A DNA stretch of 11,520 nt from a virus. Lineage: Duplodnaviria > Heunggongvirae > Uroviricota > Caudoviricetes. Within the stretch, counting starts at the first letter, position 1; every line of letters begins with the position of its first letter. Below, piece after piece: positions 1 to 11,520 of the stretch. Location of the stretch: the IMG/VR virus record IMGVR_UViG_2579778535_000015, one strand, 5' to 3'. Under the pieces are notes generated by a model. That model had not been told where the DNA came from. It saw only the letters and a program-made list of their open reading frames with translations, and made no database searches. Position numbers and translations under genes: made by a program.

Positions 1-600
1 ATGCTTATTGGCTATGTCCGCGTATCAACAAATGACCAGAATACAGAATTGCAGCGTAACGCGCTGGAGTGCGCAGGATGTGAACTGATTTTTGAAGATA
101 AAATCAGCGGAACGAAATCAGCCAGACCGGGATTGAAAAAACTGCTCAGAACGCTATCAGAAGGAGATACGCTGGTTGTCTGGAAGCTGGACAGACTGGG
201 CAGAAGTATGAAACACCTGATCACGCTTATTGAGGAATTGCGGGAAAAAGGTGTTAATTTCCGTAGTCTGACGGACAGCATTGACACATCAACACCCATG
301 GGGCGTTTCTTTTTTCACGTCATGGGAGCTTTAGCCGAAATGGAACGTGAATTAATTGTAGAGCGTACACTGGCCGGGCTGGCAGCAGCACGCGCACAAG
401 GACGCATTGGCGGACGTCGCCCGAAGTTGACAAAAGAACAACACGAGCAAATAGCGAGGCTGATTAAAAACGGTCATGACAGGAAACAACTGGCGATCAT
501 TTACGACATCGGCATATCGACGATTTATCGTTATCACCCTGTAGGCGATATACAGGCTGAAGAAACAATCAGGCAGATTCAGGAAAATGAAAACCGCTAA
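1..600 (+). CDS. Serine-recombinase DNA invertase (Pin/Gin/Hin/Cin family)
   Basis: 199-aa ORF starting at window position 1 (upstream region not visible). Translation carries the family-typical blocks GYVRVSTNDQ (catalytic serine), VVWKLDRLGRS, SLTDSIDTS and GRFFFHVMGALAEMERELIVERT, plus a short C-terminal HTH-like tail. It closely resembles e14 Pin and Salmonella Hin as I recall them. Confidence 0.9.
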   Translation: MLIGYVRVSTNDQNTELQRNALECAGCELIFEDKISGTKSARPGLKKLLRTLSEGDTLVVWKLDRLGRSMKHLITLIEELREKGVNFRSLTDSIDTSTPMGRFFFHVMGALAEMERELIVERTLAGLAAARAQGRIGGRRPKLTKEQHEQIARLIKNGHDRKQLAIIYDIGISTIYRYHPVGDIQAEETIRQIQENENR

Positions 601-626: not shown

Positions 627-1115
627 TCAAAACAGCCCTTTAACGGAGCTGGCCGCGCTGTTAAGGGATGATGTGACCTTATCTTTGAAGCCGGACAGCA
701 TATCACTGAACGATGAGGATTGCAGGCGCTCCCGCAAATCCTCATCACAGCGTTCAAGAGTCAGTGAAAATTCTATCTTTTTCGCCTTACCGTAGCGATC
801 AAACTCGGAGCGGGTCGTATTCGTTTCAGTCAGTACATACATGCCGTAAATCTGTCCGACGCCATCAATCAGAGGCCAGGGGCGTCCTGTATACGCCTGC
901 GTGGTCAGCAGCGACAGCGACACTTCGCCACCTGTGATTTCAGGATAAAGCACACCAGAAAGCACGATGCGATCATCGCCTGCCCCGATATACTGCCAGC
1001 TTGCTGAACGGTTAACGCGTTCATTTTTCACATGCCGCCAGCTTTTATTTTGCTGTAACTGCTGATGCGGCAATGTGCGCAGCTCAAAAACAAACATGCC
1101 GTAGATCATCATCAT
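627..1115 (-). CDS. U: P2 gpU-like tail protein
   Basis: Minus-strand ORF (six-frame track 627..1121). The N-terminus MMMIYGMFVFELRTLPHQ is typical of GpU-family proteins. Lies immediately downstream of the tape measure gene, matching P2 T-U order. I place the start at the ATG at 1115 (minus) because a GAGGAG Shine-Dalgarno lies about 8 nt upstream; the start could be 1121 or 1112. Confidence 0.8.
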   Translation of the reverse strand: MMMIYGMFVFELRTLPHQQLQQNKSWRHVKNERVNRSASWQYIGAGDDRIVLSGVLYPEITGGEVSLSLLTTQAYTGRPWPLIDGVGQIYGMYVLTETNTTRSEFDRYGKAKKIEFSLTLERCDEDLRERLQSSSFSDMLSGFKDKVTSSLNSAASSVKGLF

Positions 1116-1127
1116 GGCCATGACTCC

Positions 1128-3971
1128 TCAATCTTTATCGTAAAAACTGCCACGTCCGGCACGGTCGCGTCGTTCCAATTCTGCCCTGACCATTTCACCG
1201 ACCAGTTTCGCCAGTTCGCGGGGATTCTGCGTAACAACGTTATGCAGATGAACATGAATTTCACCGCCAAATCCGGAGACAACAGGCTCCCGGTTACGGG
1301 AAGTTGCAGGAACTGATGCCACTGGCGATCGTATGGCCTCCACCACCGGGCGGGAGCTGGCCGCAACAACAGGGACCAGCGCCGGAGGCAGAGGAGTCGG
1401 GACCACGGGTGTGATGTTGATTGCGGAAGCAGGCTTACTGACCTGCGCAATCTTCCGCTCCTGCCACTCCCCACGAACAGCAAGTGCGCGGGGCAGGTTC
1501 TTAAAGACAATATCGCCGGGGCCAATGCGTTTTTTCGTCTCATCAACCAGCTTACCTGTGTTATCAGCAATTTTGCTGAGTCTGCGTAGCGTACCGGTAT
1601 TGCTGTCTGTGAGCGGTTTGTTGTCTTTGGGTTTATCACCTCCGGTGCCATTGCCATTTTCCACAGGCTTCGGCGGATTGATTTTCGCCAGGTCCCCCTG
1701 AAGCAAGGCAACCTTGTCCTGAAGAATGGCCGCACGCTGTGCGTCTTCGATTTTCTTGCGCGCCCTTTCCGCTTCATCCGGAAGGACGCCAAGTTTTTCA
1801 AGTATCCACGCCAGCGTATCCAGTAGCATTTTTGCAGGCGTCAGAACAAGTTGTAACGCACCGCCAAGAACGTTACCGAATATCTCGCCAGCACTGGTAC
1901 ATTTATCCAGCGTTTCCTTGCTGGACTCCATCGGTGACAGCAGCGATTTAAACCAGTTAAACACCTGGCTGATCCCGCTTCCGATTGCGTCAAAAACAGG
2001 ACCAAACCGTTCAAAGGTTTCGCGCAACGGGGCCAGCCTTTCCATAATCCCGCTGAACACCCCGGCAAAAAATGCCCTGATGGGATCCCAGTATTTCCAG
2101 ATAAGAACGGCAGCTCCGGCAAGCGCAGCCACGATAAGACCAACCGGACTGAACAGCGCCCCGATAGCACCTCCCAGCAAAGAAACGGAACCCGTCACCA
2201 TTCCCCATAGTGCTGGCAGGACCCTGACAGCATTCATTGATCCGGTCAGGAGAGAAAAACCGAGACGTAACGTAGCCAGCTTCCCGTGAAGCACCCCAAT
2301 AACCAGAGACAACGAACCAACCGTTGCTGCTGTCGCCAGCAGTGCACCTCCCGCTATCAGTAACTGGCGCGTCAGTGCCGGATGGGCCTGCGCCAGTGCC
2401 GTCACTTTTGAGACCACCCGCGTGAGCCACTGCGTGACAGAACGCAGCGGACCGTCAATCAGATCTGCAATGCGGATGCGCAACCCTTCCCATGCACTGC
2501 CGAGTGATTTCAGATCGCCGTCAAGGTTGTTGGCCATAACCTTTGCTGTGCGTTCAGCCTCACCGCGCGCGCCTTCAAGTTCTTTTCTCAGTTTGGGTAA
2601 GGAACCGTCACCCGCTGCATCAACGAGCGCCATAAACGATGTGAAAGCCTCTTCTCCGGCAATGTCCTTAAAGAACGATACCCGGTCAACTTCCCCGTAT
2701 TTGCGGGTGGCTTTATAAAGGTCGGCCAGCACATCCTCCATCGGGCGCATTTTGCCCCCGGCATCCGAGACGGACACGCCCAGCTCTTTCAGAGCTTCTG
2801 CCGCCGCCTTTGGCGGTGATGCCAGACGAGCCAGGCTGGCACGCATTGCCGTCCCGGCATCACTCCCTCTGATGCCCATATTCGCCAGCACGCCAGCCAT
2901 CGCTGCGGCCTGCTCCAGCGATATTCCCAGCTTACCCGCCACCGGACCTGCATATTTCATGGTTTCACCCAGTGCGCGAAGGTCAGTGTTGGTACGGGTA
3001 AACGCTGCGGTAAGTGTGTCACCGACCCGGTCCATCTGGTCAGCAGAAAGGCCGAACTGCGTCAGGATATTTGAGCCAATATCCGCCGTCTCGCCGAGAT
3101 CGATACCGCCAGCCGTTGCCATGCTTAGCACGCCGGGAAGCGCAGCCTGAATGGCCTGCGGAGTAAAACCAGCCATTGCAAGAAATGCCTGTCCACTGGC
3201 GGCATCGCCTGCGGTGAACTGCGTTTCAGAGCCAAGTTTTAACGCCTGCTCACGCAGCGCCTTAAACTGCGGGCTGTTCTGGTCAATTCGCGTCAGCGCC
3301 TGAACGCGGGACATCTCTTTCCCGAACCCGATCGCGGGCTGCAAAAAACGCCCGGCAGCATAGCCGCCCGCAGCTGCTGCACCAATTGCCAGCGCACCAC
3401 CTGTTTTCAGTTTTCCCGCTGTTTCCTGCGCGCGCGAATACCGCTCACGCGCCCGCGTTACACGCGCAAGCGCCTGCCGTTCGCGTTCAAGCTGGTTGTT
3501 GTACTGTTCGGTGCGTCTGATGGCCTGCTGGATGGTGTTATCGCTGCCTGTCAGGGAAATGCCGTGGCGTTTCAGCTCTCCGCCAAGTTCCCGCATTTTC
3601 TGAATTTCCCGTGTGCGCGATTCATTCAGGCGTTCAAGCCGGGTGCTTAACTGCTGCATCAGCTTTTGTTGTTTTTCGCTGAGCACTGTACCCGTGCGTT
3701 GTAACTGATTAAGGGCGTTAAGCTGGCGTCGTGCTTTCAATATGCCAGCATCCGCTTTACTGACAGCGTCACGGGCGCGCTCAAATGAACGCGCCTGACG
3801 CTCGAGATTTTTGATCGCCCCCTGAGTTCGCTGGATGGAGTCACCAAACTGCCCCATCAGGCGGCGGGCGTTTTCGGCAGGCCGGGTCAGCCTGTCAACG
3901 GCGCTGAAAGCGACCCGGATATCAAGAGTCTTCATTGTCTGCATTCCCGCTGCGAAGTGCCGCCCGCTCAC
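1128..3971 (-). CDS. T: Phage tail tape measure protein (P2 gpT-like)
   Basis: 947-aa minus-strand ORF between the E/E' chaperone gene and U. Long helical N-terminal half rich in Q/R/E/L/A, hydrophobic Gly/Ala-rich central segments, C-terminal region. The 5' end overlaps the E' frameshift ORF as in P2. Exact start uncertain: GTG at 3971, or in-frame ATG at 3944 or 3935. Confidence 0.85.
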   Translation of the reverse strand: MSGRHFAAGMQTMKTLDIRVAFSAVDRLTRPAENARRLMGQFGDSIQRTQGAIKNLERQARSFERARDAVSKADAGILKARRQLNALNQLQRTGTVLSEKQQKLMQQLSTRLERLNESRTREIQKMRELGGELKRHGISLTGSDNTIQQAIRRTEQYNNQLERERQALARVTRARERYSRAQETAGKLKTGGALAIGAAAAGGYAAGRFLQPAIGFGKEMSRVQALTRIDQNSPQFKALREQALKLGSETQFTAGDAASGQAFLAMAGFTPQAIQAALPGVLSMATAGGIDLGETADIGSNILTQFGLSADQMDRVGDTLTAAFTRTNTDLRALGETMKYAGPVAGKLGISLEQAAAMAGVLANMGIRGSDAGTAMRASLARLASPPKAAAEALKELGVSVSDAGGKMRPMEDVLADLYKATRKYGEVDRVSFFKDIAGEEAFTSFMALVDAAGDGSLPKLRKELEGARGEAERTAKVMANNLDGDLKSLGSAWEGLRIRIADLIDGPLRSVTQWLTRVVSKVTALAQAHPALTRQLLIAGGALLATAATVGSLSLVIGVLHGKLATLRLGFSLLTGSMNAVRVLPALWGMVTGSVSLLGGAIGALFSPVGLIVAALAGAAVLIWKYWDPIRAFFAGVFSGIMERLAPLRETFERFGPVFDAIGSGISQVFNWFKSLLSPMESSKETLDKCTSAGEIFGNVLGGALQLVLTPAKMLLDTLAWILEKLGVLPDEAERARKKIEDAQRAAILQDKVALLQGDLAKINPPKPVENGNGTGGDKPKDNKPLTDSNTGTLRRLSKIADNTGKLVDETKKRIGPGDIVFKNLPRALAVRGEWQERKIAQVSKPASAINITPVVPTPLPPALVPVVAASSRPVVEAIRSPVASVPATSRNREPVVSGFGGEIHVHLHNVVTQNPRELAKLVGEMVRAELERRDRAGRGSFYDKD

Positions 3972-4140
3972 GCCAGCTAACCACTTCGCCGGGCGTCATC
4001 ATGAAGATTTCGGCGGGCGACCAGTTAAAAATGGCGGCAATATCCGCCACAAAGTCTTCTATGTGCTCAAAGCACACAACCGTGATCAGGCTTCCGTCGC
4101 CTGTTCGTTCTTCCCGCCAGAGTCCGCACCGCTCAAAAAA
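3922..4140 (-). CDS. E': gpE' extension, expressed as E+E' fusion by -1 programmed frameshift
   Basis: The -1 frame ORF (track 3922..4158, minus) is entered exactly at the slippery heptamer inside gpE. After the slip the reading continues ...VNFF-ERCGLWREERTGDG... to a stop at 3922, overlapping the start of T. This is the conserved P2-family E/E' arrangement. Confidence 0.6.
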   Translation of the reverse strand, partial: FFERCGLWREERTGDGSLITVVCFEHIEDFVADIAAIFNWSPAEIFMMTPGEVVSWRERAALRSGNADNEDS

Positions 4141-4451
4141 TTTACGGCAACCACACATAACTGAATAAAGTCACGGGATGCCATTTTTTTGATCGTCACT
4201 TCATCCAGTCGCGGTGATGTCACGCGTGACAGCAGCGTAAACATGGATTCCGCTTTCAGATTCAGCACATCAGACAGCGACAAATCTCGCAGAGATCCAG
4301 CCTGCTCAATAGCCCCGGTGATCTCCACATACGTGATTTTTTCGCTGCCTCGCTCAATGGGTTGGGTAAGTTTTACGCCACGCTCACTGGTTTCTTTCAC
4401 AGTGTCAGCAACTACCGTGTTTTCGGTATCGATGTTTTTCGTCTCTTTCAT
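4086..4451 (-). CDS. E: Tail assembly chaperone (P2 gpE-like)
   Basis: 121-aa minus-strand ORF between FII and T. AAGGAG Shine-Dalgarno 7 nt upstream of the ATG at 4451. Contains the internal slippery site that feeds E'. Position and size fit the P2 gpE family. Confidence 0.8.
   Translation of the reverse strand: MKETKNIDTENTVVADTVKETSERGVKLTQPIERGSEKITYVEITGAIEQAGSLRDLSLSDVLNLKAESMFTLLSRVTSPRLDEVTIKKMASRDFIQLCVVAVNFLSGADSGGKNEQATEA
4134..4140 (-). other. -1 programmed ribosomal frameshift slippery heptamer T_TTT_TTG (gpE/gpE')
   Basis: Plus strand 4134-4140 is CAAAAAA, so the minus strand reads TTTTTTG. In the gpE zero frame the codons are AAT TTT TTG (N-F-L), giving the X_XXY_YYZ phasing. 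The -1 frame from this point is open for 71 codons. Confidence 0.65.
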
Positions 4452-4505
4452 CAGGAAACTCCTTTCAGTCAGAGGCGACGCACTGCGCCGCCTGCATATT
4501 ACTTA

Positions 4506-5018
4506 TCAGCCAAGCCCGAGCGCGGAACGGATGCGATCGGGCACAATGTCCTTGCCGTCCTTCCGGTAAATGAAGTTCAGCAGGTCAATCTCCCACAACG
4601 GGCGATCGTTAACACTCAGCTTGTAGTAGGTGTTTTTAATGGCGTAAGTGTGTGATGTGGCTTCGCCCTGTTTGGCTTCCCCCATATCAATTTCCGTCAC
4701 ACGTCCGCGCATTTCGACTTCATACAGGTCGCTTTCTGCATCGGTGTAGTATTCACCCGCAAAACGCAGCAGCGTGCCGTCAATCGTGCCGCCATACTTA
4801 AGGAACAGCTCACGAACTGCGCCCCCCATGACAAAGCTCGCATCAAGCGCGGAGTCATCCAGGCCGAGATCAATACTTACCGCTCCCATCATGCCACCAC
4901 CCCGGTAGCTGTCGGTTTTGCGCGTCAGCTTAGGCAAAGTGACGGACGTCACCTTACCCACTTCGTTTTCACCATCCACAAACAGCGTAAAAAAGCGAAG
5001 ATGTTTTGGCACAGCCAT
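4506..5018 (-). CDS. FII: Tail tube protein (P2 gpFII-like)
   Basis: 170-aa minus-strand ORF. Its start codon overlaps the FI stop (minus strand reads TGATG) and is preceded by GGGAGGTG. Size and position directly downstream of the sheath gene match P2 FII. Confidence 0.88.
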   Translation of the reverse strand: MAVPKHLRFFTLFVDGENEVGKVTSVTLPKLTRKTDSYRGGGMMGAVSIDLGLDDSALDASFVMGGAVRELFLKYGGTIDGTLLRFAGEYYTDAESDLYEVEMRGRVTEIDMGEAKQGEATSHTYAIKNTYYKLSVNDRPLWEIDLLNFIYRKDGKDIVPDRIRSALGLG

Positions 5019-6202
5019 CAGGCACCTCCCAGCACCGCAAATGCGGGTTCAAAGTATTCATCAGTAAACGTCTGGTAAAGCTCCATGTCTTCCAGTGGCG
5101 GAACGGGCGTATATTTGTAGCGAATACGCACACGCCCCTGACGTAAATCCGTGGTGCTGTTATCCACCACGTCATACCAGCACGACGCGCCAATCAGTTT
5201 CCCGGCAGTAACCAGTGAATCCAGTTTTGCCCTGATGGCACTGATAACATCCTTCACGTTCGCAGGCGTCAGTGGACTGTCGATGGTTTCAAACTGCGCT
5301 TCCGCAATTGAATCAGCCAGCACCTGTGCGGTTCGGGTATACACCTCAAAAATGTAGGCGTTCGTTTCCGGTGTGCGGTTGCCCCAGAAGCGGAACCCGT
5401 TGCGACGAATAATGGTCGTGATTTCTTTGTTGTTGAGGCTGTTGGCATCACTGTCTTCGGCCTGCAACGACCAGAACACATGCCTCGACATCCCCAGCAC
5501 ATTTTTAACCGGAACGTTGGACAGCGATTTGTGCCAGCCCTGCTCATGGTCAATGTACGCACGAAGGCCGCACGCATAAGCAGGCGCGGGGAACGTTTCG
5601 TTTTCGCCACTTTTCGGGTTGTAGGCGATGAAGTCCGGCCATAAGAGCATTACTTCACGTTCGTTGAATTTCTGGCGGTAGGTAATCGCTTCAGCCATCG
5701 TGTTACAGCCGTGACATGAGGCATACACAAACGCGCGAAGTTTACCCGCAATCACGCACAGGGATTTTGTCACCGCCTCCGTGTCCAGCTCCGGCGCGGC
5801 CAGAATACGCGGACGGTATCCGATGCTTTCATCCTGCTCTGCAACAAGCAGCGCATACATCCCCGTATAGCTGCCGTCATCCTCAGAACCACCGATAACC
5901 AGTTGATCCTGCGTCTTTTCGTCTTCTTCTTTGTGTTCAGCCACGCGAACGACGATCACCTTTGTGCTCACCTGGTCTGCGATGGCCTTAAGCGCACGAT
6001 AAAGCGTCCCCGTTGTTCCGCATTTTCCCAGCACGTCATTGACGCGGGTCAGCAGTGTGGGCTTGTTCAGCGGGAACAGCTTCGCGTCCGCATCATCCGC
6101 CGTTGCCACGATACCGATAACGCTGGAATCAACATCGTTAATCGCTGTTACCAGGTCGGTATTTTCCGTAACACGGGCACCATGAAAACGAGTTTCACTC
6201 AT
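5018..6202 (-). CDS. FI: Contractile tail sheath protein (P2 gpFI-like)
   Basis: 394-aa minus-strand ORF. Recalled similarity to P2 FI throughout, for example LNKPTLLTRV, WPDF, HEQGWHKSLSNV, IRRNGFRFWGNRT, YTPVPPLE. AAGGGG Shine-Dalgarno about 9 nt upstream of the ATG at 6202. Confidence 0.9.
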   Translation of the reverse strand: MSETRFHGARVTENTDLVTAINDVDSSVIGIVATADDADAKLFPLNKPTLLTRVNDVLGKCGTTGTLYRALKAIADQVSTKVIVVRVAEHKEEDEKTQDQLVIGGSEDDGSYTGMYALLVAEQDESIGYRPRILAAPELDTEAVTKSLCVIAGKLRAFVYASCHGCNTMAEAITYRQKFNEREVMLLWPDFIAYNPKSGENETFPAPAYACGLRAYIDHEQGWHKSLSNVPVKNVLGMSRHVFWSLQAEDSDANSLNNKEITTIIRRNGFRFWGNRTPETNAYIFEVYTRTAQVLADSIAEAQFETIDSPLTPANVKDVISAIRAKLDSLVTAGKLIGASCWYDVVDNSTTDLRQGRVRIRYKYTPVPPLEDMELYQTFTDEYFEPAFAVLGGA

Positions 6203-6359
6203 AGCTTCAGCCCCTTGTATCCGTTAAATGATTCGGCAACAATCATCACCCACCACGCGCGTAATCTCACCCCTGCGCCGTTCTCCCGCCACGGCGACAA
6301 CAAAAAGCAGTAACCCCCTCCGCACGCACATGCGACCATGCCACACAGGGAGGGAGCAG

Positions 6360-7469
6360 ATGACCGACACCACCATGCAATTGCTCAGTCAGAGCACAGA
6401 CCCCGTGAAAATGCCGGATTTTGATATTCTTGCGGAGGGTAAAACGCTGTCCGGCGTGGCAGAGCGCCTGATGAGCCTGTCACTGACCGACAACCGGGGA
6501 TTTGAAGCAGACCAGCTCACCATCACGCTGGATGATGCTGATGGTCAGTTGCAGTTGCCGCCACGGGGCGCTCGCCTGACGGTTCTCATTGGCTGGAAAG
6601 GCGAACCGCTGACAGAAAAAGGCACTTACATTGTTGATGAAATTGCTCATGAAGGACCGCCCGACAGACTGACCATTTCAGCCAGAAGCGCAGATTTTCG
6701 GGATGAATTTAACGTCAAGCGCGAAGTGTCCTGGCATGATGTGACCGTTGAGCGAGTGGTATCCGCCATCGCTCATCGGTACGGTCTGAAACCGCAAATC
6801 AGCGAAATGCTGATGGATATCGAAATCGACCACGCCGACCAGACCGAAGAAAGTGACATGTCCTTCCTTACGCGCATGGCGGAAATGCTGGGCGCAATCA
6901 CCACGGTAAAAAGCGGTAATCTGTTATTCATCATGCCCGGCGGTGGCGTGAACGCACAGGGCCAGCCGTTGCCATCGTTCGCCATCACACGCAGCAGCGG
7001 CGATCGCCATCAGTTCCGCATTGCGGACCGCGAAGCGTATACGGGGGTACGCGCCTACTGGCTTGATCTTAATTACGGGAAAAAGAAAAAAGTCAGCGTG
7101 AAACGCCGCAAACCGCCAAAACCCAAAAAGGAGAAAAGCAGCAGCCGTGAAGGTGATTATATGGAAGGCGCGGAAGGCAATGTGTTTGTGTTACGCAAGA
7201 CCTATCAGAACGAACAGGCAGCAAGACGCGCAGCGGCGGCAAAGTGGCAGCAACTACAACGCGGAGCCGCATCATTCTCCATCACGCTGGCGCGTGGACG
7301 TGCAGAACTCTACCCCGAAATGCATGGTACGGTAACAGGATTTAAAAGCGAGATTGATAATCAGGACTGGATCATTGCAAAAGCCGAGCACACCATTGAT
7401 AACAGTGGCTTTACCACGCAGCTTGAGCTTGAGGCAAAAATCCCGGAATGGATAGCGGAAACAGAGTGA
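6360..7469 (+). CDS. D: P2 gpD-like tail protein (late control gene D family)
   Basis: Plus-strand ORF (track 6228..7469). I place the start at the ATG at 6360 (MTDTTMQLLSQS...), which follows a GGGAGGGAG Shine-Dalgarno. About 370 aa, immediately upstream of ogr as in P2. The family assignment rests on position, size and recalled sequence character, not on a search. Confidence 0.78.
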   Translation: MTDTTMQLLSQSTDPVKMPDFDILAEGKTLSGVAERLMSLSLTDNRGFEADQLTITLDDADGQLQLPPRGARLTVLIGWKGEPLTEKGTYIVDEIAHEGPPDRLTISARSADFRDEFNVKREVSWHDVTVERVVSAIAHRYGLKPQISEMLMDIEIDHADQTEESDMSFLTRMAEMLGAITTVKSGNLLFIMPGGGVNAQGQPLPSFAITRSSGDRHQFRIADREAYTGVRAYWLDLNYGKKKKVSVKRRKPPKPKKEKSSSREGDYMEGAEGNVFVLRKTYQNEQAARRAAAAKWQQLQRGAASFSITLARGRAELYPEMHGTVTGFKSEIDNQDWIIAKAEHTIDNSGFTTQLELEAKIPEWIAETE

Positions 7470-7511
7470 GGAACTTAGAATAGCGACAGCACCACGTTAA
7501 GGGAGGTCGCT

Positions 7512-7772
7512 ATGTTCCGTTGTCCGCTTTGTGGCGCATCTGCCCGTATCCGCACCAGTCGTCCGGAAAATGATTCAAACACCGTGCGGCAAAAGTATTA
7601 CCAGTGTAACAACCTGGAATGCGGCGTATGCTTCTCAACACTGGAAGCTTTCCATAAATTCACATCGAAACACGCCTCCGGCGTTCACTCATCAGAAGGT
7701 ATCCCGTGGCATGAGCTGCCAGCTTCACACAGGGGAAACAATCAGATGAGTTTGCCTTTATCTCAGAATTAA
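7512..7772 (+). CDS. ogr: Ogr/Delta-family zinc-finger late transcription activator
   Basis: 86-aa ORF starting MFRCPLCGASARIRTSR, with a second Cys pair CNNLEC (C-x2-C ... C-x4-C), matching recalled P2 Ogr (MFHCPLC...CQNVNC). GGGAGG Shine-Dalgarno 5 nt upstream. Directly downstream of D. Confidence 0.85.
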   Translation: MFRCPLCGASARIRTSRPENDSNTVRQKYYQCNNLECGVCFSTLEAFHKFTSKHASGVHSSEGIPWHELPASHRGNNQMSLPLSQN

Positions 7773-8170
7773 CAGGCAGAATTGCCGGAGTAACAAAAAA
7801 AGCGATACACCCATTTACCCGGCAGTACCACTCCCCCGCCCCATAGCTGGCAGTGAGGCGGGATGTTTTGCCTACCCGCCAGCAGGCACCATCGTGGAAA
7901 TATCCAACATTGAAGGACGCCCGGATAAGCCTGTTATCAGGCAAATCTTACCCATCGGTCATAACCTGCCTGATGTAAAGCCCGGCGAACAATTGCAACA
8001 ACAGCGTGCAGAAGTGTTTCAGCATGTCACGACTGACGGAAGCTGGCGCAGAAAAACCGACCAGCAAATCCAAGAAGAAAAGCGCGTAAAACGATCACTG
8101 CTGATGTGGCGTTTCTTTATACAAGCTGCTATTTGCGATATGCTGAACACATCAACCTGTGGAGTGCATT

Positions 8171-8797
8171 ATGAAACAAAAATCAAAGTCTGCTGCCATT
8201 GCTGCTATTGCTACAGCTCTGACAGCATCACTGGCTCCGGTGCCAGCTAAAAGCACGATACTACCAACAACAGTTATTGAATCCGTGACACACGCCAGAG
8301 TGGTTTCAATGCTTACATTTGAGCATCATGATGGTCAGGTGTTTCTGCCTCTTGAAGAAGCTATTGAATATATCAACGGGCTGAATGACAACATGCGTGC
8401 CGCGCTCAATGCAGTCATTGAAGAACGACAGAACAGAGGCAAGGGAGCTCTGTTTGCTGACAAAACCGCAAAAATCATAAAAATATGCGAAGAGTCACTT
8501 AAGCAGCACAGCCGTGTTAAAGAGGCTGTCAAAATTGTAATGGATCCGGATAACCTGGCAAAAATGTATCCGGATAGCATGGAGCAAAGAATCGCCTATC
8601 GCAATAAACTGGTTCGTTTTGGTCGGGCAATTGCGCAGGGAGAGTTTATCGCTCGTGATGCCATCAACGCCATCAAACGAAGCACCGCACCAGACAAAAC
8701 GACCAGCCTAGGCAATACGCTGTCTGACGGAAATGTGAAAGCAATGATTATTGCCGAGCATAAAAACATGGGACTCCCGGCACCGGAGTTTTCCTGA
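8171..8797 (+). CDS. Hypothetical protein, upstream partner of the YafO-like gene; possible N-terminal signal peptide
   Basis: ORF in track as 8159..8797. I prefer the ATG at 8171 (MKQKSKSAAIAAIATALTASLAPVPAKS...), which has GGAG 6 nt upstream. About 208 aa, predicted mostly helical, no family recognised by eye. Its stop overlaps the next gene's ATG (TGATG at 8795-8799). Confidence 0.55.
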   Translation: MKQKSKSAAIAAIATALTASLAPVPAKSTILPTTVIESVTHARVVSMLTFEHHDGQVFLPLEEAIEYINGLNDNMRAALNAVIEERQNRGKGALFADKTAKIIKICEESLKQHSRVKEAVKIVMDPDNLAKMYPDSMEQRIAYRNKLVRFGRAIAQGEFIARDAINAIKRSTAPDKTTSLGNTLSDGNVKAMIIAEHKNMGLPAPEFS

Positions 8798-9177
8798 TGG
8801 CAAGCAAAGTAAGCATTCATAAAGATGTTGAATACCAGGACATTGCAAAAGTTTACGGAAAGGCTCTGGAAAACTGGTTAAATACCGGTGTTCTCCCTGA
8901 CAGATTCGGCAATGAAGGGCAGTGGGAAGATAACGCAAGATTATGTGGTTCGTTTGTATATAAATTACACATAAGACTACCGTCAGAACCACCATGGAAG
9001 AAAAGCAAAGCCCAAATAGACAGAACTTCAAATATCTATCTGGTTTATACAAGGCACTGGATGGATTATGACAATATACAAATCATCAGCATCATGGCCC
9101 CAGATGCTCACGAAAAAGCCAAAACTTCTTTCATGGCTGAGCTGGAAAGACGGGCAGAAGAATTCCAGAACTCATAA
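8797..9177 (+). CDS. YafO-like toxin-domain protein (type II TA toxin family, ribosome-dependent mRNA interferase)
   Basis: 126-aa ORF. Recalled E. coli YafO shares GVLPDxFG, the HIxL block, the stretch RTSNIYLVYTRHWMDYDNIQIISIMAPDAHEKA (YafO: RTNDEAHLVYCQGAFDEQAWLLIAILKPEPHKLA) and a C-terminal MAE..R..F. Start is translationally coupled to the upstream ORF. Followed by a strong intrinsic terminator. Confidence 0.62.
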   Translation: MASKVSIHKDVEYQDIAKVYGKALENWLNTGVLPDRFGNEGQWEDNARLCGSFVYKLHIRLPSEPPWKKSKAQIDRTSNIYLVYTRHWMDYDNIQIISIMAPDAHEKAKTSFMAELERRAEEFQNS

Positions 9178-9200
9178 ATTGCCTGATTTTCTCCCAGAAA

Positions 9201-9232
9201 CCCGCAGCGTAAAAACTGCGGGTTTTCTTTTT
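9201..9232 (+). terminator. Rho-independent terminator after the YafO-like gene
   Basis: CCCGCAG (9201-9207), loop CGTAAAAA, CTGCGGG (9216-9222), followed by TTTTCTTTTT (9223-9232). Confidence 0.75.
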
Positions 9233-9256
9233 GGTGCCCTCACAAATGAGGGCACC
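9233..9256. repeat. Perfect 10-bp inverted repeat GGTGCCCTCA-CAAA-TGAGGGCACC
   Basis: Directly abuts the terminator T-tract. No U-tract follows on the plus strand, so it is probably not a second terminator. Possibly a protein-binding palindrome or RNA structure. Confidence 0.4.
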
Positions 9257-9279
9257 ATACATAAGCAATAGGCATAACA

Positions 9280-9317
9280 GATCGATGCAATAAATCCGAT
9301 CGATAAAAACGATCGAT
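9280..9317. promoter_or_regulatory. Cluster of three GATCGAT direct repeats (three Dam GATC sites) upstream of the com-like gene
   Basis: GATCGAT at 9280-9286, 9298-9304 and 9311-9317, in a 38-bp AT-rich stretch about 45-80 bp upstream of the com start. Resembles the three-GATC regulatory region upstream of the Mu mom promoter. Confidence 0.45.
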
Positions 9318-9361
9318 TTGTTATCATATCGGCAGCAGTAACCACACAAGAGGTGCCGCAA

Positions 9362-9559
9362 ATGACGCAAAATGTACGATGCAAAAATTGCAACAAACTA
9401 CTTGCCCGCGCCTCATTTCACTACATTGAAATAAAATGTCCGCGCTGCAAAACACTTAACCAGATAACGAGAGCCATCGAGCACCCCACACACATGAGGA
9501 GTTATGACCGTGGGGATCGCAATCCAGCACCAACCAGCACATACACCGGAACACACTAA
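9362..9559 (+). CDS. com: Com-like zinc-finger translational activator (phage Mu Com family)
   Basis: Track ORF 9353..9559 begins at GTG. I prefer the ATG at 9362 (MTQNVRCKNCNKLLARASFHYIEIKCPRCKTLNQI...), with AAGAGGTG Shine-Dalgarno 6 nt upstream. Two CxxC pairs (CKNC, CPRC) and a recalled Mu Com-like N-terminal region. The 3' end overlaps the start of the methyltransferase gene by 56 nt. Confidence 0.75.
   Translation: MTQNVRCKNCNKLLARASFHYIEIKCPRCKTLNQITRAIEHPTHMRSYDRGDRNPAPTSTYTGTH
9484..9515 (+). promoter_or_regulatory. Candidate mRNA stem-loop enclosing the methyltransferase Shine-Dalgarno and start codon
   Basis: CCCCAC (9484-9489) can pair with GTGGGG (9510-9515). The 20-nt loop contains GAGGAG (9496-9501) and the ATG at 9504. 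By analogy with Mu, Com binding could open this structure. Stability not computed. Confidence 0.35.
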
Positions 9560-10295
9560 GGTTTATCAGACTGACAATGCCACGCTCTGTCGTGGGAATG
9601 CGCTGGAAATATTGCCGCTGATTGAGCCAGAAAGCATTGATGCCTTAATCACTGACCCACCTTACAGTTCGGGTGCGACACACAAGGCCGGACGCACCAA
9701 CCAGGGCAGCCATGCAAAATATCTGAACGGCGAGAACCTTCACCGCTTTGATGGGTTCGCGGGTGAAAACATGGACGCCCGTTCGTGGGCTTACTGGACA
9801 CAATTATGGATGGCACAGGCACACCGCGCAGTCAGGCCGGGCGGTTATGCCCTGGTATTTACTGACTGGCGACAACTACCAGCTTTAACCGATGCGTTTC
9901 AGGCCAGTGGCTTTACATGGCGCGGCATCATTGCGTGGAACAAAGGGAGGGGGTCACGAACACCACATACCGGGTATTTCCGGCATCAGTGCGAATACAT
10001 CGTCTGGGGCAGCAAAGGCCATTTAGATAAATCGCCTTCGGGACCGTTCGACGGCTGCATGACGTTCCCGGTTATCCCGTCAAAGAAAATGCACCCAACC
10101 GGAAAACCAGAAGAACTAATGGCGGAACTGGTCAGGACTGTGAATAGTGGCGGAACAGTCCTTGATCCTTTTATGGGGTCAGGGACAACGGGTGTGGCTG
10201 CACTGAAAGCAGGACGCAAATTTATTGGTATAGAAACCAGTGATCATTATTTTGATGTAGCAACACAACGGCTCAAAACGGCGATCGAACCATAA
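9504..10295 (+). CDS. Beta-class amino DNA methyltransferase (N6-adenine or N4-cytosine), probable orphan phage methyltransferase
   Basis: 263-aa ORF with motif IV (ITDPPYSSG) near the N-terminus and motif I (FMGSGTTGVAALKAGRKFIGIE) near the C-terminus, the order that defines beta-class amino-MTases. No adjacent endonuclease gene. Start could be the ATG at 9504 or the GTG at 9510. Confidence 0.85.
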   Translation: MTVGIAIQHQPAHTPEHTKVYQTDNATLCRGNALEILPLIEPESIDALITDPPYSSGATHKAGRTNQGSHAKYLNGENLHRFDGFAGENMDARSWAYWTQLWMAQAHRAVRPGGYALVFTDWRQLPALTDAFQASGFTWRGIIAWNKGRGSRTPHTGYFRHQCEYIVWGSKGHLDKSPSGPFDGCMTFPVIPSKKMHPTGKPEELMAELVRTVNSGGTVLDPFMGSGTTGVAALKAGRKFIGIETSDHYFDVATQRLKTAIEP

Positions 10296-10299
10296 GACA

Positions 10300-10321
10300 A
10301 AGCCCGCAATGTTGCGGGCTT
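10300..10321. terminator. Palindromic hairpin after the methyltransferase gene (weak or bidirectional terminator candidate)
   Basis: AAGCCCGCAA-TG-TTGCGGGCTT is a perfect 10-bp inverted repeat, 5 bp after the MTase stop. The downstream T-tract on the plus strand is poor (TT then ACTCTACC). Confidence 0.45.
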
Positions 10322-10524
10322 ACTCTACCTCTCGAAAATGTGGTCACTGCGTGGACATACGCTGATACAAATCCTTTTATATCAATAAATTAAATCTTTG
10401 TTTTTTTCATCAACAAGGATTTTCACGTTTGTGTTACCTGTATGAGACGAGAGTTAACCGGACAAGTGTGCCATAATCTCGCGGCCAGGCATACTTGCGA
10501 AGATTTCAGGTATAAGGATACGTA

Positions 10525-11520
10525 ATGATACAACCTATTTCCGGCCCTCCTCCTGGGCAACCACCAGGTCAGGGAGATAATCTGCCGTCTGGCACGGGCA
10601 ATCAGCCTTTATCCAGTCAGCAACGTACTTCGCTGGAAAGCTTAATGACGAAAGTGACCTCACTGACGCAACAGCAAAGAGCAGAACTGTGGGCGGGTAT
10701 CAGGCACGATATTGGTCTGTCGGGAGATTCACCGCTGCTTTCGCGTCACTTCCCTGCCGCTGAGCATAATCTGGCGCAACGTCTGCTGGCCGCGCAAAAA
10801 AGCCATTCTGCCCGCCAGCTTTTAGCGCAATTAGGGGAGTATTTACGTCTGGGGAATAATCGTCAGGCGGTCACGGATTATATCCGTCATAACTTTGGTC
10901 AGACGCCGCTGAATCAGCTCTCACCGGAGCAATTAAAAACCATTCTCACCCTGTTGCAGGAAGGGAAGATGGTTATTCCGCAACCACAGCAGCGCGAGGC
11001 GACCGACCGTCCTTTATTACCGGCGGAGCACAATGCGCTAAAACAGCTGGTGACCAAACTTGCGGCGGCAACGGGGGAACCCAGCAAACAGATCTGGCAA
11101 TCGATGCTGGAACTTTCCGGGGTGAAAGATGGCGAGTTAATTCCAGCGAAACTGTTTAACCATCTGGTGACCTGGCTACAGGCGCGTCAGACGCTAAGCC
11201 AGCAAAATACGCCGACGCTGGAATCACTACAGATGACGCTAAAACAACCTTTAGATGCCAGTGAACTGGCGGCGTTATCGGCATATATCCAGCAAAAATA
11301 TGGTCTTTCTGCGCAATCATCGCTTTCTTCTGCCCAGGCCGAGGATATTCTTAATCAGCTTTATCAACGGCGGGTTAAAGGGATTGATCCGCGTGTTATG
11401 CAACCGCTGCTTAATCCTTTTCCACCGATGATGGACACGTTGCAAAATATGGCAACGCGTCCCGCGCTGTGGATACTGTTAGTCGCGATTATCCTGATGC
11501 TGGTCTGGCTGGTTCGTTAA
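10525..11520 (+). CDS. flk: Flagellar regulator Flk (tail-anchored inner-membrane protein)
   Basis: 331-aa ORF with Pro/Gly/Gln-rich N-terminus (MIQPISGPPPGQPPGQG) and a C-terminal hydrophobic anchor (ALWILLVAIILMLVWLVR). Length and sequence match my recollection of enterobacterial Flk. AAGGAT Shine-Dalgarno upstream of the ATG. Confidence 0.8.
   Translation: MIQPISGPPPGQPPGQGDNLPSGTGNQPLSSQQRTSLESLMTKVTSLTQQQRAELWAGIRHDIGLSGDSPLLSRHFPAAEHNLAQRLLAAQKSHSARQLLAQLGEYLRLGNNRQAVTDYIRHNFGQTPLNQLSPEQLKTILTLLQEGKMVIPQPQQREATDRPLLPAEHNALKQLVTKLAAATGEPSKQIWQSMLELSGVKDGELIPAKLFNHLVTWLQARQTLSQQNTPTLESLQMTLKQPLDASELAALSAYIQQKYGLSAQSSLSSAQAEDILNQLYQRRVKGIDPRVMQPLLNPFPPMMDTLQNMATRPALWILLVAIILMLVWLVR

Follow-up and report, generated by a model that had tools for sequence, protein, structure and literature searches.

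Where does the P2-like prophage in this stretch of DNA end, and do the genes that follow its last conserved gene belong to it? The stretch, IMG/VR virus record IMGVR_UViG_2579778535_000015, is 11,520 nt long (hereafter the window; coordinates are window positions). Its open reading frames (ORFs) were listed and the translations compared with Pfam, NCBIfam, PADLOC, PHROG and PDB. By this listing and the family searches, the window holds the right-hand part of a P2-like prophage, to the left of the host gene flk, and ogr is the final conserved phage gene ahead of a block of cargo. In P2 itself, attP lies directly after ogr. A sequence-only reading of the same DNA had followed that model: it expected the prophage to end just after ogr (7772), declared the boundary not identifiable, found no att core, and left the cargo as either a variable region inside the prophage or an independent islet adjoining it. 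Its account of the gene content, with an unknown protein, a YafO-like gene, com and a methyltransferase (MTase) gene preceding flk, agrees with the ORFs and with Pfam, and a tRNA/tmRNA scan of the window for an att landmark was as empty as that reading had supposed. The boundary, on the other hand, can be located. We conclude that 7773-10403 is almost certainly the accessory end of the P2-like prophage, with attR at 10404-10423, so that the prophage runs on for 2.6 kb beyond the end that the P2 model predicts.

Three comparisons carry this conclusion. Escherichia phage Chuche, sequenced as a free phage, has the order ogr, hok/mokW, com, MTase, about 300 bp containing attP, and integrase, and its homology to the window reaches 10423. 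In prophage-free Escherichia coli K-12, pdxB and flk stand back to back with nothing between them, and the K-12 sequence is 100% identical to the window from 10404 on. The phage and K-12 homologies overlap in 20 bp, 10404-10423 (TTTTCATCAACAAGGATTTT). This overlap contains ATCCTTGTTGATGAAAA, the 17-bp attP/attB core of the Citrobacter phage phiSM, which was determined experimentally in E. coli K-12 (PMC6456863). The core has a single exact copy in the window, at 10404-10420 on the minus strand, where shuffled sequences give an expectation of 0; it is by comparison with phiSM that the att core comes to light. Since Chuche homology extends to 10423 and K-12 homology begins at 10404, all of the cargo from 7773 to 10403 lies inside the prophage. 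Moreover, because the prophage ends inside pdxB and not after ogr, com, the MTase gene and the YafO cassette are phage genes. The choice left by the sequence-only reading thus falls to a variable region within the prophage, as the gene order of Chuche indicates, and K-12 lacks 7773-10403, so this segment is not conserved core chromosome.

Read on the minus strand, the att core corresponds to pdxB codons 2-7. The orphaned GTG start and the native upstream region of pdxB stay at attR: the reverse complement of the stub reads GTG AAA ATC CTT GTT GAT GAA AA..., encoding VKILVDE, and then passes into phage DNA, and the K-12 pdxB start matches the position at which the stub begins. Native pdxB-flk intergenic DNA amounts to 10424-10524 only, which puts the boundary about 100 bp before flk, and the phage arm of attR carries a hairpin at 10295-10326. 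A search for att-like direct repeats within 7400-10600 returned only short chance pairs. Integration takes away the pdxB start codon, with a seven-codon stub remaining at attR. For phiSM, it is known that pdxB is restarted from a Shine-Dalgarno sequence and a TTG of phage origin (PMC6456863). The sibling prophage of E. coli L9, about 34.8 kb in length, has the att core at attL adjoining its integrase, with AAGGAG and an in-frame TTG reading into pdxB (locus L034, 8280-8400). The L9 phage arm adds MSETEKGL to PdxB via this TTG restart, and in the L9 lysogen PGAP annotates pdxB from Met9, as a protein of 370 aa versus 378.

By its alignments, the prophage belongs to the Peduoviridae and is of the P88/phiSM/Chuche type, integrated in the first codons of pdxB. 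The synteny of U, T, E, FII, FI, D and ogr is present, with DNA identity of 94-99% to Chuche and to the UMNK88 and ETEC1732 prophages. Likewise, phiSM, Chuche and P88 share with the window the tail gene order, D and ogr (95-98% DNA identity) and the att core in the 5' end of pdxB; Chuche also carries the com-MTase module before attP. What sets these three phages apart from the window is the interval directly after ogr, where they have hok/mokW and the window has a scrap of a baseplate gene, a partner gene and a YafO gene.

How did the YafO cassette come to stand in the place of hok? A block of 1390 bp (7808-9197), made up of the baseplate-gene scrap, the partner gene and the YafO gene, occupies the position of 383 bp in the hok-carrying sibling, and no hok sequence is left in the window. 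Homology to E. coli L9 and to phage Chuche stops at 7807 (BLAST). The match to L9, by sliding identity and BLAST, is 100% over 7001-7750, 99.1% over 7701-7807 and 100% over 9198-11520, and sliding identity to the serS-prophage of ETEC1732 is 100% over 8001-9000. Since both flanks of the insert match the pdxB-type sibling L9, the arrangement reads as a recent double-crossover cassette replacement; a chromosomal inversion junction between a serS-type and a pdxB-type prophage was considered and rejected on the same evidence. Homologous recombination overwrote the hok slot recently, with crossovers in the flank on the ogr side and in the terminator segment 9197-9257. The latter holds a terminator with an 11-bp stem followed by a T run (terminator scan), and the inverted repeat I3 lies in the same segment. 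It is conserved in all versions of this end, being common to serS-type prophages, whose homology to the window runs to 9257, and to hok-type prophages, whose homology resumes at 9198.

The block itself was found in 23 of 5426 complete E. coli genomes. Sixteen of these carry it full-length with at least 99.6% identity, and in the two full-length carriers that were inspected (UMNK88 and ETEC1732) it sits at the end of a serS-integrated P88-like prophage. In the other seven, it lies in a raiA-integrated prophage, next to a candidate HEC-04 ATPase. The window's own combination next to flk occurs in none of the 5426 genomes. The scrap at the left of the block comes from within a baseplate gene, encoding 565 aa, of the raiA-integrated prophage lineage: it is 93.4% identical to E. 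coli A2 (locus L005, 5985-6257), after which comes a 1025-bp deletion relative to A2, and it matches positions 301-391 of PHROG 2258, "baseplate protein," at 2.8e-44. In UMNK88 and ETEC1732, its PGAP annotation is that of a partial pseudogene. The scrap is a scar of the earlier home of the cassette. It also gives rise to a spurious 118-aa ORF at 7894-8250. In the A2 raiA prophage, a 489-aa AAA_15/AAA_21 ATPase lies directly 3' of the partner-YafO cassette (L005, 8864-10333); it matches the PADLOC candidate HEC-04 (6e-204), and an MTase remnant comes next. The features of the window are collected in Table 1.

Table 1. Features along the 11,520-nt window.
Feature	Position	Strand	Basis or remark
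Hin/Gin-type invertase	1-600		Adjoins tail genes; Resolvase and HTH_7 domains
Tail genes U, T, E, FII, FI	627-6202	-	
Gene D	about 6360-7469		
ogr/Delta-type late-gene activator	7512-7772	+	Pfam Ogr_Delta, 5e-14; annotated ogr in sibling prophages
Left flank of the swap slot	7773-7807		Common to hok-carrying sibling prophages
Pseudogene scrap (baseplate)	7797-8070	+	274-bp internal gene piece
Partner protein, 208 aa	8171-8797 (ORF open from 8159)	+	No family match
YafO-family toxin (predicted), 126 aa	8797-9177	+	PF13957
Intrinsic terminator, then second hairpin	9197-9257	+	Right flank of the slot and right-hand crossover zone
com-MTase regulatory region (predicted)	9280-9327	+	Three GATC sites, promoter-like site
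com, Mu Com-like zinc ribbon	9362-9559 (ORF open from 9353)	+	Zn_ribbon_Com; start as called by PGAP in a relative
Predicted RNA hairpin over the MTase start	9485-9515	+	RNA fold of 9440-9530
Orphan beta-class amino-DNA methyltransferase, 263 aa	9504-10295	+	Pfam N6_N4_Mtase, 3.4e-33
Phage arm of attR (MTase-proximal part of attP)	10296-10403		Aligns with phage Chuche, not with K-12
attR core	10404-10423	-	Right boundary of the prophage (almost certain)
Orphaned pdxB 5' stub	10404-10426	-	Followed by the native pdxB promoter region up to flk
flk, host chromosomal gene outside the prophage	10525-11520	+	Annotated flk; K-12 match

The toxin gene of the cassette can be assigned to a family with ease. 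Its 126-aa product matches the Pfam family YafO_toxin (PF13957) at 1.1e-27, with 96.5 bits against a cutoff of 25. Its score against the NCBIfam YafO equivalog, 42.7, is far under the cutoff of 153, and by these scores the protein is a member of the YafO family and not an ortholog of YafO; it is 31% identical to the K-12 protein. Its invariant residues include K56, H58, R76, H87, H105 and R119. The predicted structure has a RelE/HigB fold, and the protein is predicted from this model to be a RelE-fold ribosome-dependent mRNA endonuclease. The cassette resembles YafN-YafO of E. coli in its YafO domain, its predicted RelE/HigB fold and its organization as a two-gene operon with the non-toxin gene first. 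It differs in location, a prophage slot as opposed to the dinB operon, and in the first gene, since YafN is a 97-aa protein of the Phd/YefM type and the partner has 208 aa without similarity to YafN.

The partner is the more unusual of the two proteins. It has no match in Pfam, NCBIfam, PADLOC, PHROG or PDB, gives no BLASTP alignment with YafN, contains no Phd/YefM domain, and shows no detectable DNA-binding domain of the antitoxin type. The RefSeq name "SufA" is probably spurious, given that the partner lacks relatives in known families and similarity to YafN. Its homologues, of about 200-210 aa, start at the same ATG (8171) and fall into 38 clusters when grouped at 90% identity. When 1.84e9 representative proteins were searched exhaustively with a profile, 32 representatives of the family came up, all in Enterobacterales-type contexts; the search returned this narrow family and its fragments only, and none of them was fused to a known domain. 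In the predicted structure of the partner, long helices form a bundle, with a predicted local distance difference test (pLDDT) score of 72 and structural matches to generic coiled coils only. The best-conserved part of the protein is the C-terminal 70 or so aa. A conserved N-terminal segment, MKxK...ASLAPVPAKS, is encoded at 8171-8260. Salmonella partner genes that looked truncated, at 68 aa, proved to belong to an intact ORF that continues in frame.

Each intact locus examined has a YafO_toxin gene immediately downstream of the partner gene, whose stop here overlaps the toxin start as ATGA. The loci come from unrelated contexts: E. coli prophages, a Morganella rne-sbcB islet, a Photorhabdus toxin-antitoxin (TA) island, a Pantoea plasmid, the end of a Salmonella prophage beside Phd-Fic, and a Yersinia islet. 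When plasmids were searched for the cassette, the Pantoea megaplasmid homologue was the sole match. There are also remnant loci, in which the partner stands alone and the toxin has been lost. Judged from this pattern of co-occurrence, the partner and YafO probably form a TA pair with a new type of antitoxin. The upstream, translationally coupled partner would neutralize a ribosome-dependent mRNA endonuclease. Ecologically, the pair would do what the hok module did before it was replaced: stabilize the prophage and/or abort infection by other phages. Indeed, hok/mok/sok occupies the identical slot between the ogr flank and the terminator in sibling prophages and has an analogous presumed role in host killing or stabilization. 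The two differ in kind: hok/mok/sok is a type I system of a membrane peptide and an antisense RNA, whereas the cassette has a predicted RNase and a protein partner.

Beyond the terminator lies the com-MTase module. In phage Mu, the mom promoter is controlled by Dam and OxyR through a GATC cluster, and translation of mom depends on Com. The Com protein of the window matches Pfam Zn_ribbon_Com (1.1e-11) and PHROG 13819, "gpCom control of modification" (2e-17), and com overlaps the first 56 nt of the MTase gene. Upstream, GATC sites at 9280, 9298 and 9311 fall within 35 bp (9280-9314), compared with about one per 310 bp across the window, and the cluster overlaps a promoter-like site (-35 TCGATA, -10 TATCAT; promoter scan). 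Neither the three sites nor the -10 varies among five com-MTase modules, one of them the diverged raiA-type. A predicted hairpin (CCCCAC...GUGGGG) takes in both the Shine-Dalgarno sequence of the MTase gene (GAGGAG) and its AUG at 9504, and is on the RNA fold a candidate translation-inhibition structure. The MTase has its motifs in the beta-class order, with DPPY (motif IV) near residue 51 and DPFMGSGTT (motif I, FMGSG) near residue 213. It matches PADLOC MTase_II at 3.8e-64, among Type II or orphan-MTase profiles; its nearest PDB relative is DpnA (5hek, 8.8e-21), and CcrM is also homologous. No restriction endonuclease ORF lies beside it on either strand (ORF listing, PADLOC). An M.EcoGII-type non-specific adenine MTase was considered and dropped; M.EcoGII has 349 aa, and its paper makes no mention of com.

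The module shares with Mu com-mom the overlap of com with the modification gene and the cluster of three GATC sites; the predicted hairpin on the downstream start may be a third parallel. It departs from Mu in the modification gene, which encodes a beta-class N6/N4 amino-MTase and not Mom, the enzyme of acetamido-adenine modification. By analogy, we favor, with reasonable rather than strong confidence, a Mu-like control of the MTase. The methylation state of the three GATC sites, set by Dam, would gate transcription of com-MTase, and Com would open the mRNA hairpin that hides the MTase start. Such gating by Dam state and Com would amount to late expression of an orphan anti-restriction methylase, made only in lytic growth and pre-methylating progeny DNA against restriction.

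The whole explanation, an accessory prophage end with a TA cassette and a Mu-like com-MTase module, is very likely correct, with its weight on the structural claim. Several observations count against it. The attL of the window's own prophage lies beyond the window. Neither cassette protein matches PADLOC. In one assembly, the partner is frameshifted and the toxin gene intact. In the family members from E. coli, Salmonella and Yersinia (25-27% identity), the partner N-terminus resembles a Sec signal peptide: an n-region rich in K and an Ala/Leu h-region come before V-x-A at -3/-1, which is followed by a conserved Ser. An exported partner would fit poorly with a cytoplasmic antitoxin. The fold of 9440-9530 has a minimum free energy of -20.7 kcal/mol with a z score of -1.65, which is statistically unexceptional. 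Finally, the GATC/OxyR and Com mechanisms are borrowed from Mu, and the gene downstream of com here is an MTase gene and not mom. Of the rivals to the structural claim, that the cargo is an independent islet beside a prophage that truly ends just after ogr has the example of P2 on its side, as well as the fall in GC content after ogr and the fact that partner-YafO also stands by itself, as an islet of two genes, in chromosomes of Morganella and Yersinia. The compositional argument holds in part. GC content drops from 54.7% in the tail genes to 46.1% in 7808-9197 (46.4% in the partner gene, 40.7% in the YafO gene) and 37.9% in the com promoter region, which accords with the earlier impression of AT-rich cargo; the MTase gene, at 52.4%, is the same as flk (52.0%) and does not fit that description. 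Against the islet stand the free phage Chuche, which holds com-MTase between ogr and attP/int and so effectively shows that part in phage DNA, the phage homology to 10423 with a known att core at 10404-10420, the empty pdxB-flk junction of K-12, and the lack of any second att-like repeat, integrase or transposase in 7773-10403. We find the islet scarcely credible. It is also very improbable that the MTase is the modification half of a host-protective restriction-modification system. Its best PADLOC matches are indeed "Type II methyltransferase" profiles, but no endonuclease ORF is adjacent on either strand, com precedes the MTase gene in a Mu-mom-like layout, and the com-MTase module travels alone between prophages at different att sites.

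The rivals to the TA reading concern what the partner does. One is that the pair is an anti-phage abortive-infection or defense system and not a mere addiction module, with the partner as a sensor of infection. The same slots in sibling prophages hold candidate defense genes (PDC-S31/DUF2971, PIN, HEPN-like), the cassette adjoins the HEC-04 ATPase candidate in strain A2, it lies beside Phd-Fic in Salmonella and inside a TA island in Photorhabdus, and P2-like phages are, as far as the excerpts of two sources go, known reservoirs of defense hotspots (PMC9122126; bioRxiv 10.64898/2026.02.27.708500). These neighborhoods are weak evidence, since the same slot also takes hok and other plain TA modules; PADLOC gave no match, and no paper was found that ties YafO cassettes to defense. 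A dedicated defense function is possible but, in our view, doubtful. The other rival takes the signal-peptide-like N-terminus of the E. coli, Salmonella and Yersinia partners at face value, together with the absence of a detectable antitoxin-type DNA-binding domain: the partner would be exported or membrane-anchored, and the pair would not be a classical type II TA system, its control being coupled to secretion or the envelope, or its members being two unrelated co-transcribed morons. In distant members of the family, the n-region is acidic or neutral and the "h-region" contains charged residues, but the (L/M)AP(V/A/I) core of the LAPVP motif is retained, which speaks rather for a structural motif. 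That the partner strictly accompanies a cytoplasmic RelE-fold toxin and is coupled to it by ATGA argues for direct interaction, and conservation is best in the C-terminal 70 or so aa, as in many antitoxins. We therefore regard export as unlikely. A more specific proposal, that the partner represents a new and very narrow family for RelE-fold YafO toxins in which the signal-peptide-like "LAPVPA" ties toxin control to secretion or the envelope, is a longer shot still; if the partner were exported or membrane-inserted, this would bring a new kind of logic to TA or abortive-infection systems, in a plug-in cassette swapped against hok. In the literature, we found nothing linking YafO cassettes to defense or to a signal-peptide antitoxin.

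When E. coli genomes and phage records are compared, three variable slots can be told apart at the D-ogr-att end of these prophages. The slot between D and ogr is empty in the window. Elsewhere, its occupant is a DUF2971 protein (PADLOC candidate PDC-S31), a PIN_12 protein or a weak HEPN-like protein, or else a 52%-identical allele of the partner-YafO cassette. In that allele (loci L018-L021, 6001-7007), the partner is 52% and the toxin 67% identical; its prophages are integrated at tamB/ytfP, prpB or flk, and hok still follows ogr there. The slot after ogr contains hok/mokW in most relatives. The last slot carries com-MTase, or a zinc-ribbon and VasI/TagO-like pair, or nothing, as in serS-integrated P88-type prophages. 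The com-MTase module is present in 171 of the 5426 complete E. coli genomes, at several att sites, and occurs also in a different prophage lineage at raiA, where it is again preceded by hok. The cargo is a set of exchangeable modules between conserved flanks, with Module 1 at 7808-9197 and Module 2 at 9258-10295.

That the cargo serves defense or anti-defense, as had been suggested for a site of this type, is plausible. With the PADLOC-DB v2 hidden Markov models, only the MTase had a profile match; the partner, YafO, Com and the scrap ORF had none, and no complete defense system was recognized. Anti-restriction is a role that would suit the MTase, and the YafO cassette has a TA-like character. 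In the excerpts of the two sources on P2-like cargo hotspots, these lie mainly between gpA and gpQ (cos-proximal; Rousset et al. 2022, PMC9122126), with minor ones elsewhere (bioRxiv 10.64898/2026.02.27.708500). The window resembles those hotspots in having variable cargo between conserved phage genes, exchanged among related prophages. It differs in that the site is the D-ogr-att end, the ogr-att interval not being among the hotspots named in those excerpts, and in that its cargo is made up of TA and MTase modules, not of recognized defense systems.

Two features at the other side of the window are separate from the cargo. In the related ETEC1732 prophage (locus L022, 29410-31865), the Hin/Gin-type invertase flanks opposed copies of the tail-fiber and assembly genes, an arrangement that suggests an invertible host-range segment just outside the window. 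The gene D ORF is open from an ATG at 6228 (to 7469, 413 aa), and homologues point to a start at 6360 (369 aa). In several sibling prophages, PGAP has gene D as a shortened 266-aa "VgrG/Pvc8 family" protein with a partial ORF on the opposite strand, which looks like an annotation inconsistency.

Much of this locus was already known. The att site and the restart of pdxB have been described (PMC6456863), P2-like variable hotspots are established, and hok, com and MTase genes are routinely annotated. The rest of the region is expected temperate-phage biology. What this analysis adds is modest, namely the exact swap event, the three-slot D-ogr-att layout, and a YafO-family toxin with an unprecedented partner. 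The annotation of the locus is settled by a prophage end inside pdxB. Moreover, the region provides a base-pair-resolved example of how P2-like prophages trade small cargo cassettes via short stretches of conserved flanking sequence: a protein toxin pair has taken the place of the type I toxin hok, and the donor and recipient alleles are still 100% identical in other genomes. The partner-YafO cassette recurs in prophage cargo slots next to candidate defense genes, which makes it a well-defined candidate for TA and phage-defense assays.

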